Shown here: positions 1 through 3,901 of the stretch, in pieces | Position numbering within the stretch: the stretch's first letter is position 1 | Layout of the letters: each line of letters begins with the position of its first letter | Source of the DNA: a virus | Taxonomy: Duplodnaviria > Heunggongvirae > Uroviricota > Caudoviricetes | Direction: 5' to 3' (one strand) | Virus record (IMG/VR): IMGVR_UViG_2713896783_000032 | Length of the DNA: 3,901 nucleotides | The notes under the pieces: model-generated | Seen by the model: only the letters and a program-made list of their open reading frames with translations | Told to the model about the DNA's origin: nothing | Database searches by the model: none | Made by a program: the position numbers and the translations under genes

Positions 1-162
1 ATTACGAGCCAGGGCTTCCGGATGGCTGTCGTCGTACAGTTCCGGGAACGTCATCCCCAGTTCGAAATAAGTCCGGGCTATTTCAGCTGCAGGAACTTTC
101 TCACCATCAGGATATGCCCAGGCATTCATCGCCATGCGGATGTGCTCATGTTTGATTTTCAT
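1..162 (-). CDS. ydaT: YdaT-like protein (proposed cII analogue of Rac-type prophages), N-terminal 54 codons only; 3' end runs off the window
   Basis: Minus-strand ATG at 162..160 opens a frame that stays open to position 1, translating MKIKHEHIRMAMNAWAYPDGEKVPAAEIARTYFELGMTFPELYDDSHPEALARN. This matches my memory of the E. coli Rac YdaT N-terminus. A possible SD (AAGAGG) lies about 10 nt upstream, inside the ydaS coding region. Not in the supplied ORF track because it is truncated. Confidence 0.65.
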   Translation of the reverse strand, partial: MKIKHEHIRMAMNAWAYPDGEKVPAAEIARTYFELGMTFPELYDDSHPEALARN

Positions 163-469
163 GAATCATTTGCCTCTTGATGCTTCGGGTATGATCGTTT
201 TCGTCATTTGGTTGCTTCATCGACATATTCTGCGAATAACATGACGAGCGTCGTAAGTATGTCCAATCAACATCAGGACGAAGTTCTTCACACAGGACAC
301 CACCTTTTGTTGCTCGTTCAATCGCAGGACATCTCTCAGCAGGCAACTGACGTACACCTTTGATCCATTGATTTACGCTTGGAGGAGATACACCTAAAAG
401 CCTAGCCATTGCTGATTGCCCACCGACAACAGCACAAGCTCGTTTGAATGAATAGTTATCTTTTTTCAT
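146..469 (-). CDS. ydaS: YdaS-like Cro/CI-type helix-turn-helix regulator (cro analogue)
   Basis: ORF track 146..490 (-). The codon at 490..488 is GTG; the more likely start is the ATG at 469..467, which has GGAG 8 nt upstream, giving 107 aa. Translation MKKDNYSFKRACAVVGGQSAMARLLGVSPPSVNQWIKGVRQLPAERCPAIERAT... is an HTH motif and resembles Rac YdaS from memory. It is divergent from the repressor gene and overlaps the downstream ydaT-like start by 17 nt. Confidence 0.8.
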   Translation of the reverse strand: MKKDNYSFKRACAVVGGQSAMARLLGVSPPSVNQWIKGVRQLPAERCPAIERATKGGVLCEELRPDVDWTYLRRSSCYSQNMSMKQPNDENDHTRSIKRQMIHENQT

Positions 470-496: not shown

Positions 497-526
497 ATAT
501 TAGGCTTAGCCTAATGCAATTGTCAA
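497..526 (-). promoter_or_regulatory. Candidate sigma70 promoter for the ydaS-ydaT transcript (PR-like): -35 TTGACA, 18-nt spacer, -10 TAATAT
   Basis: On the minus strand TTGACA is the reverse complement of plus 521..526 and TAATAT is the reverse complement of plus 497..502. The -10 sits next to operator copy 1 and the -35 next to copy 2. Predicted start is near 490, about 20 nt before the ydaS ATG. Confidence 0.45.
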
Positions 527-593: not shown

Positions 594-1070
594 ATGCTTA
601 GTGGTAAAGACTTAGGCCGAGCGATAGAGCAGGCCATTAACAAAAAAATTGCATCAGGAGCCGTCAAATCAAAGGCGGAAATCGCACGTCATTTCAAAGT
701 CCAACCACCATCAATCCATGACTGGATTAAGAAAGGTTCGATAAGTAAAGACAAACTTCCAGAACTATGGCGTTTCTTTTCTGATGTGGTTGGTCCAGAG
801 CATTGGGGGCTTAACGAATACCCCATACCAACCCCATCCACTTCAGATACAAAAAGTGAACTTTTAGACATAAACAGCCTTTATCAAGCCGCCTCTGATG
901 AAAAAAGAGCAATTGTGGCTTTCCTCTTATCTGGAAATGCTACGGAGCCTAGTTGGGTTGATCATGACGTTCGTGCCTACATTGCCGCAATGGAAATGAA
1001 GGTAGCTAACTATCTGAAAAATCAAGAATCAAAACGGAAAAGCCAGAACATCACCAAGACAGGAACTTAA
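594..1070 (+). CDS. racR: RacR-like prophage repressor (CI analogue), 158 aa, N-terminal HTH
   Basis: ORF track 594..1070 (+). AGGAG at 578..582 lies 11 nt before the ATG. Translation MLSGKDLGRAIEQAINKKIASGAVKSKAEIARHFKVQPPSIHDWIKKGS... resembles E. coli Rac RacR from memory. It is divergent from the cro-like gene and flanked on both sides by the same operator motif. Confidence 0.85.
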   Translation: MLSGKDLGRAIEQAINKKIASGAVKSKAEIARHFKVQPPSIHDWIKKGSISKDKLPELWRFFSDVVGPEHWGLNEYPIPTPSTSDTKSELLDINSLYQAASDEKRAIVAFLLSGNATEPSWVDHDVRAYIAAMEMKVANYLKNQESKRKSQNITKTGT

Positions 1071-1084
1071 ACTTATATGGTCCG

Positions 1085-1106
1085 ACGGGAAATTCCTAGT
1101 TCCCGT
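1085..1106 (+). other. Stem-loop 15 nt after the racR stop (ACGGGAA / 8-nt loop / TTCCCGT); possible transcript end or processing structure, not a canonical intrinsic terminator
   Basis: 7-bp perfect inverted repeat at 1085..1091 and 1100..1106. No U-tract follows; instead a C-rich, G-poor tract. Confidence 0.25.
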
Positions 1107-1164
1107 TAGTTAACTCCTACTACCTCTCCCACAAACCATCACCTATTAGGTCGCACCCAAATCA

Positions 1165-1204
1165 TTAGGCGTAGCCTATTGACAAGCAATTAGGCATTTC
1201 CTAT
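1165..1204. promoter_or_regulatory. Second operator pair (OL-like) with the same dyad motif
   Basis: Copies at 1165..1179 (TTAGGCGTAGCCTAT) and 1190..1204 (TTAGGCATTTCCTAT, one mismatch in the right half). Centres are 25 bp apart. One abuts the -35 and the other overlaps the spacer and -10 of the promoter below. Confidence 0.6.
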
Positions 1205-1207
1205 AGT
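1179..1207 (+). promoter_or_regulatory. Strong candidate sigma70 promoter (PL-like), rightward: -35 TTGACA, 17-nt spacer, -10 TATAGT
   Basis: TTGACA at 1179..1184 and TATAGT at 1202..1207 with exactly 17 nt between. Predicted start near 1214, pointing into the small downstream gene and on toward xis-int. Confidence 0.65.
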
Positions 1208-1385
1208 TTTCCCATACCAACCCATCCCGTCCCACACAATACAGGGCAATACCTAGAGTTACCCGGCAGTGGTCAGGGATTAAGTAGCCAGCCCGAGGCG
1301 TAAGAACATGACGGCAGGGTTCAACTTTAACTATGCAGCAGGTTTTTGTTCCGCTACCCCGGCGTTAAGGGGATATGAGGTCAGC

Positions 1386-1538
1386 ATGGATACTCTTGAT
1401 CTTGGCAACAACGAATCTCTGGTGTGCGGCGTGTTTCCCAACCAGGACGGCACGTTCACCGCGATGACGTATACCAAAAGCAAAACGTTTAAAACCGAAT
1501 CTGGCGCGCGTCGCTGGTTAGCAAGAAACTCTGACTAA
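1386..1538 (+). CDS. Small prophage protein, 50 aa, resembling the YdaF/YdfA (DUF1391) family; first gene of the PL-like operon
   Basis: ORF track gives 1308..1538. The internal ATG at 1386 has GAGG 5 nt upstream and yields MDTLDLGNNESLVCGVFPNQDGTFTAMTYTKSKTFKTESGARRWLARNSD, which matches my memory of the roughly 51-aa YdaF/YdfA proteins of Rac and Qin. The 1308 start (76 aa) is a possible alternative. Confidence 0.55.
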   Translation: MDTLDLGNNESLVCGVFPNQDGTFTAMTYTKSKTFKTESGARRWLARNSD

Positions 1539-1652: not shown

Positions 1653-2144
1653 CTACAGATTGCCGTTCAGTTTTCTGGCCAACTCTTCAATAGATGGAGG
1701 TGATACGTAATCCGGATTTTTATTCATAAGAAACTGATTTTCACAGTACAGGCACCTGCTTTTATGAAAAAATTCATATTCTCTAACCGGGAATGGCTGA
1801 AGTATCGATACTATCTTTTGTCCAAAACATTTTGGACAAAGATGCATGATTATGCTGCCGCCGTTCACGGTTACCTCCTTCGAGTACACAAAAGTTCCCG
1901 ACTCAAGTTGGCTAAGGATATAACCTTCCGTCTGAGCCTCAAAGTTTTCAAATTCTGCAATTTTAGCTTTGAGAGAAGCATTTATTTCTTGATAAGTGCC
2001 CACCAGCTCAACGAGAGACACGCATTCGCGCTGAATAGATGCAAGCTTTGAGTTCAGTTCACCAATAGCCGCATTTACTTCAGCTTGAGTTTTTGCCTCG
2101 TTCATTAGTTTTGCAATCTGGGCGGTTTCACGAATAGCCGTCAT
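1653..2144 (-). CDS. Hypothetical protein, about 163 aa: N-terminal coiled-coil-like segment plus C-terminal Cys4 zinc ribbon (CPKC-x24-CLYC); no family recognised
   Basis: ORF track 1653..2321 (-). The first 59 codons cover the repeat-rich upstream region and look non-coding. Likely start is ATG 2144..2142 (MTAIRETAQIAKLMNEAKTQAEVNAAIGELNSKLASIQRECVSLVELVGTYQEINASLKAKIAEFENFEAQTEGY...) or the in-frame GTG at 2168..2166, which has AAGAG upstream. Stop TAG is the reverse complement of plus 1653..1655. The region is AT-rich and the gene runs opposite to the PL-like operon. Confidence 0.55.
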   Translation of the reverse strand: MTAIRETAQIAKLMNEAKTQAEVNAAIGELNSKLASIQRECVSLVELVGTYQEINASLKAKIAEFENFEAQTEGYILSQLESGTFVYSKEVTVNGGSIIMHLCPKCFGQKIVSILQPFPVREYEFFHKSRCLYCENQFLMNKNPDYVSPPSIEELARKLNGNL

Positions 2145-2182
2145 TGCTGCCGTTAATTCAGCGATCACATTCAATACTCTTA

Positions 2183-2544: not shown

Positions 2545-2814
2545 ATGAGCGAACAGTACCTGATAACGCTCGACGAGTGGAAACCAAAACGGTTCAGTCT
2601 CCCAATAACAAACACTACCCTGGTGAAATACGGAAAACTAGGATACATCGTTCCAAGACCACAAAAAATTCGTGGGCGTTGGCTGATAGATCGCCGAGCA
2701 GTATTTGTTGGGCCTGGTGAAACGGGAATTGCGCCGGAAATTCATACTGGCGATGATGATGCACTGAAGGAGATTTTAACTCATGTCACCGAGGCCACGA
2801 AAAAACAGCACTGA
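2545..2814 (+). CDS. xis: Excisionase-like protein (Xis), 89 aa
   Basis: ORF track 2536..2814, whose first codon is GTG. ATG at 2545 has GGAG 8 nt upstream and gives MSEQYLITLDEWKPKRFSLPITNTTLVKYGKLGYIVPRPQKIRGRWLIDRRAVFVG.... Small, basic, immediately upstream of and overlapping the integrase by 32 nt, as with lambda xis-int. The Xis assignment rests on position and size more than on sequence. Confidence 0.6.
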   Translation: MSEQYLITLDEWKPKRFSLPITNTTLVKYGKLGYIVPRPQKIRGRWLIDRRAVFVGPGETGIAPEIHTGDDDALKEILTHVTEATKKQH

Positions 2815-3901
2815 CGTAGCCGGTCTTTACGAAAAGTTTGATCGCAGAACTGGCAGAGTTTACTACCAGTATAAAAATCCTGTGACTGGAAAATTTCACG
2901 GACTCGGAACAGACAAAGGTAAGGCAGAAAAAATCGCTTCCACAGCCAATCAGCGAATAGCTGCAGCAGAAGCTGAATATTTCATGCGCAAAATTGATGA
3001 AAGTCCGTCAGCAACAAAACGTCGGGGTATCAGATTAAAGGCATGGGTTGATCGATATCTGAAAATACAGGACACGCGACTGAAAAATGGAGATATTGCA
3101 GCTACAACTCACAAAGAAAAAACTCGAATGGCTGCATACCTGGTTTCCCGTCTGGGAAACCACCCATTGAAAGAACTGGAAGTAAGAGACTTTGCATTAA
3201 TACTGGATGAGTGGCTGGATAAAGACATGGTCAGTACAGCGAGAGTAAATCGTGGATTATGGGTTGATATTTATAAAGAAGCACAGCATGCAGGGGAAGT
3301 TCCTCCTGGATGGAATCCTCCGGAGGCTACCCGTAAACCGATCCCTAAAGTAACCAGAGCCAGGCTCACCATGGAAGACTGGCAAAAAATTTACAATGCA
3401 ACGCCTGAAAAACACTTTATCCGTAACGCAATGCTTCTTGCGATTGTTACTGGTCAGCGCCGTGATGACATTTGCCACATGCGTTTTTCAGATGTGTGGA
3501 ACGAACACTTGCATATCACCCAGGGAAAAACCGGAATGCGTCTGGCGTTACCGCTTACACTACGCTGTGATGCCATTGGGATAACGTTAAAAGAAGTTAT
3601 TGATGGGTGCCGAGACAGAATATTAAGTCCATATCTAATCCATAGTCGGCACCAGAAACAACCGAAGCCGATGAGTAAAGACAACCTGAGCGACTACTTT
3701 GCCAAAGCACGGGATCTGGCTGGGGTAATTCCACCAGCAGGAAAAACTCCGCCAACATTTCATGAACAACGCTCTCTATCAGAACGGCTGTACCGTGCAC
3801 AGGGTATCGATACAAAAACATTACTAGGACATAAAGTCCAGGCAACCACCGATCGCTATAACGATACTCGAGGTCAGGAATGGGTTAAGTTGGTTATTTG
3901 A
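2783..3901 (+). CDS. int: Lambda-family tyrosine integrase (site-specific recombinase), 372 aa, complete
   Basis: ORF track 2783..3901. AAGGAG lies 10 nt upstream of the ATG. The N-terminus YYQYKNPVTGKFHGLG resembles the lambda Int arm-binding domain. The C-terminus carries catalytic motifs VTGQRRDD, FHEQRSLSERLY, LLGHK and TDRYNDTRGQEW (catalytic Tyr), closely paralleling lambda Int. The stop TGA is at 3899..3901, the window end. Confidence 0.9.
   Translation: MSPRPRKNSTDVAGLYEKFDRRTGRVYYQYKNPVTGKFHGLGTDKGKAEKIASTANQRIAAAEAEYFMRKIDESPSATKRRGIRLKAWVDRYLKIQDTRLKNGDIAATTHKEKTRMAAYLVSRLGNHPLKELEVRDFALILDEWLDKDMVSTARVNRGLWVDIYKEAQHAGEVPPGWNPPEATRKPIPKVTRARLTMEDWQKIYNATPEKHFIRNAMLLAIVTGQRRDDICHMRFSDVWNEHLHITQGKTGMRLALPLTLRCDAIGITLKEVIDGCRDRILSPYLIHSRHQKQPKPMSKDNLSDYFAKARDLAGVIPPAGKTPPTFHEQRSLSERLYRAQGIDTKTLLGHKVQATTDRYNDTRGQEWVKLVI

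Follow-up and report, generated by a model that had tools for sequence, protein, structure and literature searches.

A predicted RacR-controlled promoter and a second operator pair downstream of racR in prophage Sp6 and other Rac-family elements

Directly downstream of the repressor gene racR we find a near-consensus promoter interlocked with two copies of the RacR operator dyad (positions 1166-1207). In our view this module is very probably a RacR-repressed early-left promoter, equivalent to PL/OL of phage lambda, which would drive the DUF1391 gene and, as no intrinsic terminator intervenes, also xis and int. We regard the element as the Rac-family member of the lambdoid PL/OL class, a known kind of control region that is apparently not yet annotated for RacR.

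Results

Gene layout of the window

The window, that is, the whole stretch of 3,901 nt which we analyzed, stems from the viral record IMGVR_UViG_2713896783_000032. Over positions 1-2354 it shows 100% identity to E. coli O157:H7 genomes, Sakai among them, and in Sakai this part forms the left end of the lambdoid prophage Sp6. According to the gene calls, the window opens with the end of a ydaT-like gene and continues with ydaS (146-469, minus strand). The repressor gene (594-1070, plus strand) lies between the two operator sets; it is annotated as racR in the identical O157 genomes and its product shares 92% identity with RacR of K-12. The DUF1391 gene (ydaF/ydfA family, 1308-1538, plus strand) would be the first gene of the predicted transcript. 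ECs_1504 (1653-2168, minus strand) is convergent with this transcript, and an exonuclease remnant is called between ECs_1504 and xis. The likely distal targets are xis (2545-2814) and int (2783-3901), both on the plus strand, like the predicted promoter downstream of racR, and both intact in Sp6. Sp6 lacks kil, racC and recT and has kept only a fragment of the exonuclease. The 50 N at 2355-2404 stand for 257 nt of Sakai (L001 8355-8611), which are part of a truncated gene annotated as exodeoxyribonuclease VIII. Window coordinates past 2404 therefore run 207 nt short relative to Sakai.

Two of these genes deserve a comment of their own. ECs_1504 occupies the position of sieB in K-12 Rac. It matches phrog_1244 (function unknown) and has otherwise only a sub-threshold coiled-coil Pfam match. 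A role as a defence-system gene was rejected, as PADLOC returned no hits. In the gene at 1308-1538, a short leader open reading frame (MTAGF...) is joined in frame to the DUF1391 (ydaF-like) open reading frame and ydaG is absent. The K-12 equivalent (L002 8157-8545) has a stop after 18 codons, followed by ydaG and then ydaF. As phrog_751 spans residues 9-76 of the fused frame, the long form may be the real protein.

Two operator dyads interlocked with a promoter

We searched the whole window for the dyad TAGGC-N3-GCCTA with at most one mismatch. Exactly five instances were found, at 501, 527, 552, 1166 and 1191, where 0.05 would be expected by chance; none of 200 shuffled sequences reached five. 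The dyads at 1166 and 1191 match the three at 501, 527 and 552 but are located on the far side of racR. They start 25 nt apart, and the corresponding spacings in the racR-ydaS intergenic cluster are 26 and 25 nt.

The first dyad of the pair, the putative RacR operator OL-distal (TAGGCGTAGCCTA, 1166-1178), is perfect, adjoins the -35 hexamer and is centred at about -42 from the predicted start. The second, the putative operator OL-proximal (TAGGCATTTCCTA, 1191-1203), has one mismatch and its centre is at about -17; it occupies the spacer and contributes the first two nucleotides (TA) of the -10 hexamer. The promoter scan places the hexamers TTGACA at 1179-1184 and TATAGT at 1202-1207, both on the plus strand. 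With 17 nt between them they score 11 of 12 matches, and this is the sole site of at least 11/12 in the window (0.07 expected per window from dinucleotide shuffles). The predicted transcription start, as read from the sequence, is an A at 1214 (plus strand), 7 nt past the -10 hexamer. Compared with the published RacR operator consensus (T/A)TAGGC-n3-GCCTA(T/A) (PMC9638921), TTAGGCGTAGCCTAT is a full match and TTAGGCATTTCCTAT deviates at one position. OL-proximal has a mismatch in all Escherichia versions and the affinity of this operator for RacR may therefore be low.

An earlier note on this DNA had described the same dyad as occurring twice more around a TTGACA-17-TATAGT promoter that points from racR into the ydaF-like gene and toward xis-int. 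Our dyad and promoter scans reproduce these coordinates and the description, and DUF1391, xis and int are indeed encoded on the same strand. The note had further proposed a degenerate third copy at 1146-1160, and this site we reject as an operator. The sequence is as given there (core 1147-1159, TAGGTCGCACCCA). The core has three mismatches, however, and at this level chance alone would give about 10 matches in the window, where 11 are seen. It sits 19 nt from the next dyad as compared to 25-26 nt between the accepted dyads, Sp6 and K-12 do not agree in its right half, and no counterpart was seen in the distant relatives. At most this is a conserved TTAGGT half-site.

Relation to the operators between racR and ydaS

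The operator cluster on the other side of racR (OR) consists of the dyads at 501-513, 527-539 and 552-564, whose K-12 equivalents are covered by RacR footprints and gel-shift assays (PMC9638921, PMC5700373). It is interlocked with the PR-type promoter of ydaS, TTGACA-18-TAATAT (497-526, minus strand). Positions 1165-1185 are 95% reverse-complementary to 520-540, which hold an operator and the -35 hexamer of this divergent promoter. Thus, the module at 1166-1207 is a mirror image of the ydaS promoter. In K-12, binding of RacR to the racR-ydaS intergenic region has been demonstrated by EMSA, ChIP-qPCR and thermal-shift assay (PMC5700373). The start of PydaS was mapped by primer extension, a -10 mutation abolishes its activity, and PydaS is the first region that RacR protects in DNase I footprints (PMC9638921).

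Both studies place RacR operators only between racR and ydaS (PMC5700373, PMC9638921). In the literature on RacR operators that we searched, which was incomplete for some older and newer work, sites downstream of racR are nowhere mentioned. Likewise, the literature covered on ChIP and SELEX, on the immunity region and on a left operator yielded no prior description of a RacR-operated site at this place. The RacR regulon, with the "racR-proximal operons ydaFG" included, has been called uncharacterised (PMC11014345).

Two further elements are found at the start of racR. A weak dyad (TAAGCAATGCTTA, 588-600) extends across the ATG of racR, and the early coding sequence contains a TTAGGC half-site at 613-625. 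They correspond to "O3" of K-12 and to the extra half-site reported in PMC9638921.

The module is conserved in distant relatives

We located relatives by a protein search with RacR and then compared the register of the module downstream of each repressor gene. In K-12 Rac, the same module is present between racR and ydaG (TAGGCATAGCCTA-TTGACA-atcaat-TAGGCATTACCTA-TAGT). Besides K-12 Rac, it is found in exact register in E. ruysiae, Mixta, a Pseudomonadota MAG, Proteus mirabilis, two Achromobacter and the Klebsiella phage KpF5. The layout in the relatives is [dyad][TTGACA][N6][dyad overlapping TAnnnT]. The sequences on either side of the module show no relationship, and N3 and N6 are free to vary. 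OL-distal (1166-1178) is in register in all relatives compared, and the -35 hexamer is TTGACA or TTGACT in nine of nine lineages. The consensus from seven lineages reads aTTAGGC..aGCCTATTGACa.a..ATTAGGCa...CcTAataT.

The distance between the OR and OL operators ranges from 0.64 to 2.6 kb in the relatives. In KpF5 and in one of the Achromobacter (L011), the module is found 1.4-2.3 kb past the repressor gene directly after an intrinsic terminator and therefore starts a new transcription unit. In the relatives examined the open reading frames after the module are always on the same strand.

A scan of viral contigs gave the same picture. The search pattern extended no further than the left half of the second dyad, so that the right half and the -10 hexamer were left unconstrained. 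At least 120 contigs carry the module, and in 116 of 120 a RacR-like gene with a three-dyad OR cluster is located upstream on the same strand. Although unconstrained, the right half (xCCTA) is present in 37 of the 38 distinct module variants, and the same number (37/38) holds for the TAnnnT hexamer. Within the O157 lineage the genomes are 100% identical to each other across the region.

In the two Achromobacter (L011 2501-3601 and L013 2501-3589), the N-terminal domain of a protein of 362-366 amino acids is RacR-like (77-78% identity over 77 residues). The same operators and the same promoter module are found 1.6-2.3 kb downstream. Thus, the DNA-binding domain and the operator cassette travel together with different C-terminal domains.

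Repressor and both operator sets are exchanged together

With window positions 1071-1307 as query, we searched the complete E. coli genomes. The search matched 3,708 genomes, only 1,086 of which cover the whole query. In an evenly spaced sample, all partial matches start at query position 142-161 (window 1212-1231, mostly 1213). For about 2,600 additional E. coli genomes, similarity to the window begins only at about 1213, near the predicted start. The leader and DUF1391 gene (1213-1538) are common to Qin-like prophages of other immunity types, and 1213 marks a mosaic boundary.

One such Qin-like prophage (L017) encodes a different repressor. Its divergent intergenic region, at the OR position, contains TACC-N4-GGTA three times. 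At the OL position the same motif is found twice, 25 nt apart, around TTTACT-17-TATTCT, and a leader of the window type comes next. The promoter dicBp of K-12 Qin also aligns in register with the module (TTGACC-17-TAATCT). dicBp is the DicA-repressed promoter of dicBF; it has dicCp-like operators and is 22-fold derepressed upon deletion of dicA (PMC10448788). In the heteroimmune Qin-like prophages the repressor is thus replaced along with the operators at both positions, while the downstream sequence is homologous. Operators, spacing and promoter position therefore behave as one immunity cassette, whose left boundary would coincide with the predicted transcription start at about 1213-1214.

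An exact direct repeat of 13 nt (CCCATACCAACCC) occurs at 822-834 inside racR and at 1211-1223, that is, at the predicted start and mosaic joint. If one indel is allowed, the similarity reaches about 17 of 18 positions, and both copies are embedded in C-rich, G-poor sequence of rut-like appearance. In K-12, termination by Rho is reported to take place inside racR (PMC4150792). The repeat could be due to chance, could be a shared Rho-loading motif or could represent a recombination joint.

Leader, terminators and reach of the predicted transcript

The predicted transcript would begin with a conserved 5′ leader (1214-1307, plus strand) which is C-rich and G-poor at its start (18 C versus 4 G in 1208-1250), and for this reason Rho may attenuate the transcripts. 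No Rfam match was found in the leader at E values up to 1, and its folding does not stand out from shuffled sequences (z = 0.37). We therefore rejected a structured RNA or nut-like element in 1214-1307.

On the plus strand, from the promoter to xis and including the 257 masked nucleotides, no site resembling an intrinsic terminator was found. Transcripts may nevertheless be stopped by Rho or by convergent transcription, because the rut-like leader and the gene at 1653-2168 precede xis. Within the left arm of Sp6 (3.2 kb), 1179-1207 is the only promoter-like site that was found.

The stop codon of racR is immediately followed by a hairpin without T-tract (ACGGGAA-N8-TTCCCGT, 1085-1106), the stem of which is one base pair shorter in K-12. 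As an intrinsic terminator it was rejected since its stability is no better than that of shuffled sequences and it is absent in the relative L008. Neither Sp6 nor K-12 has a convincing intrinsic terminator after racR. The existing model for K-12 explains the silencing of Rac kil without a separate promoter: transcripts that run on from the racR promoter are terminated by Rho (PMC4150792). The supplements of Cappable-seq and SMRT-Cappable-seq contain no start-site entries for racR, ydaG, ydaF or kilR or at the expected coordinates.

Discussion

We suggest that the early-left side of the prophage is controlled in the following way. The near-consensus sigma-70 promoter would fire away from racR, and the transcript, starting at about 1214, would first cover the DUF1391 gene and then continue through xis and int. 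As long as the prophage is lysogenic, RacR dimers would sit on both dyads, one adjoining the -35 hexamer and the other covering the spacer together with the first bases of the -10 hexamer. With two RacR dimers bound 25 bp apart, RNA polymerase would be kept off the promoter, as at PydaS, its mirror image. Once the level of RacR drops, the promoter would fire. Most likely the excision and early genes of the prophage would thereby be kept off in the lysogen.

Published expression data from K-12, obtained by RNA-seq and qRT-PCR after depletion of RacR (PMC6765115, PMC11014345), are consistent with this mechanism. When RacR is lowered, ydaF, ydaG, ydaE and racC go up about 40-fold and kilR, ydaC and ralA more than 70-fold (PMC6765115). 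xisR and intR are raised about 100-fold by depletion, extra RacR being without effect, and this response was noted although both genes are "far away" from racR (PMC11014345). Part of the derepression could be indirect via YdaS or YdaT. Zygotic induction of the recombination functions of Rac is classical (PMC5917428). Sp6 itself excises spontaneously, mitomycin C does not raise this excision, and it can lysogenise K-12; its repressor has no peptidase domain (PMC2669165). In addition to the sequence of the module, the earlier note had deduced from the operators on both sides of racR a two-sided immunity region of the lambda type. The presence of the module in distant hosts, the heteroimmune swap, the register of dicBp and the 40- to 100-fold derepression in K-12 all support this idea.

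One of the closest known systems is PL/OL of lambda. There too, operators are repeated beyond the repressor gene, they overlap a strong promoter which leads away from it into recombination, kil, xis and int genes, and heteroimmune relatives differ in this entire unit along with the repressor. Adjacent operators in lambda are about 23-25 bp apart from centre to centre, similar to the Sp6 module. In contrast to lambda with its three operators (OL1-OL3), the Sp6 module has two; however, three tandem operators define lambda and not the wider PL/OL class. The Sp6 dyad is also different, being 13 bp long (TAGGC-N3-GCCTA), no N gene or nutL was recognised, and Rfam gave no hit. Furthermore, the Sp6 repressor is unrelated in sequence to the lambda repressor, is not cleavable via RecA and has no peptidase domain (PMC2669165).

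Three more promoters are instructive. dicBp of Qin is the positional homologue downstream of its repressor gene, with -35 and -10 hexamers in register and the homologous DUF1391 gene ydfA next, and experiments have demonstrated that its cognate repressor represses it (PMC10448788). It differs in that the repressor is DicA, which has other operators, and in that the leader of K-12 Qin is only partly homologous. The prophage CP-933P of E. coli O157:H7 (repressor PaaR2) has a Rac-like immunity region with ydaS and ydaT and, in PL933P/OL1-3, a second promoter which has the same hexamers as its PR and OR-like operators; in reporter assays PL933P is regulated by PaaR2 and YdaS (PMC8630535). Unlike in Sp6, the repressor family and the operator sequence are others, there are three operators, and a toxin-antitoxin pair is inserted between repressor gene and PL. 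PydaS/O1-O3 of K-12 shares with the module the dyad, the repressor and the interlocked order operator, -35, operator, -10, and is 95% complementary over 21 nt. It is found, however, on the other side of racR, points in the opposite direction and has a spacer of 18 instead of 17 nt; moreover, the racR promoters are served there by two additional sites, the third and the fourth.

The dyads could also be genuine RacR sites with a mainly architectural role. As an auxiliary OL they would loop to OR via RacR oligomers and tighten the repression of PydaS and the autoregulation of racR, the promoter being of minor importance. Lambda uses OL for looping to OR. RacR appears as an octamer in size-exclusion chromatography (PMC11014345), so that a loop over about 650 bp between OL and OR may form, and the distances of 0.64 to 2.6 kb between the operator sets of the relatives are in a range compatible with looping. 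Yet a pure looping site requires neither a -35 nor a -10 hexamer, whereas TTGACA and TAnnnT are conserved in distant lineages as strictly as the dyads, and genes always follow on the same strand. We consider a mainly architectural role unlikely, but looping and promoter function are compatible with each other.

Still less probable is that the Sp6 module is a relic kept by descent, the early-left operon having been deleted down to the DUF1391 gene and an exonuclease remnant. The loss of kil, racC and recT, with only the exonuclease fragment left, fits such a history and the complete identity among the O157 genomes hides any selection within the lineage. But xis and int are intact, are encoded downstream on the same strand and are not separated from the promoter by an intrinsic terminator, the left arm has no other promoter-like site, and Sp6 still excises and lysogenises (PMC2669165). 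It has also been proposed that read-through from the racR promoter is a source of kil expression (PMC4150792), and RacR bound to the two dyads might then act as a roadblock which halts this read-through into the early-left genes. The missing intrinsic terminator after racR in Sp6 and K-12 would be in line with a roadblock. However, relatives which have an intrinsic terminator immediately upstream retain the full module, and the conserved promoter hexamers would be left unexplained, so that in our view this possibility is hardly worth considering. A RacR-repressed early-left promoter thus stays our preferred interpretation.

Taken further, and here we are tentative and would rather doubt than assert that every part is correct, RacR-type immunity regions might use a minimal OL of two operators that pairs via RacR octamers with a three- to four-site OR, forming a loop of about 0.65 kb which encloses racR. 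The early-left deletion in Sp6 would then have left xis-int about 1.3 kb from the promoter, with no intrinsic terminator and no need for an antiterminator, and the occupancy of the two dyads alone would set the SOS-independent rate of spontaneous excision. In K-12 Rac, the kil, recET, xis and int transcripts would come from the same promoter and not from read-through of the racR promoter.

As the principle is textbook lambdoid biology, the value of the finding lies in annotation and mechanism for the Rac family and not in a new concept. If true, a RacR-operated promoter directly 3′ of racR would be the missing cis element for control by RacR. It would explain how RacR governs the whole leftward operon, which in K-12 includes kilR, recET, ralR and xis-int and in Sp6 xis-int. 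It would also provide a second source of kil transcripts beside the Rho-based "trac" read-through model, and the second operator set which lambda-like looping by octameric RacR needs. For E. coli O157:H7, the module bears on how excision is controlled by a prophage that is defective and yet mobile.
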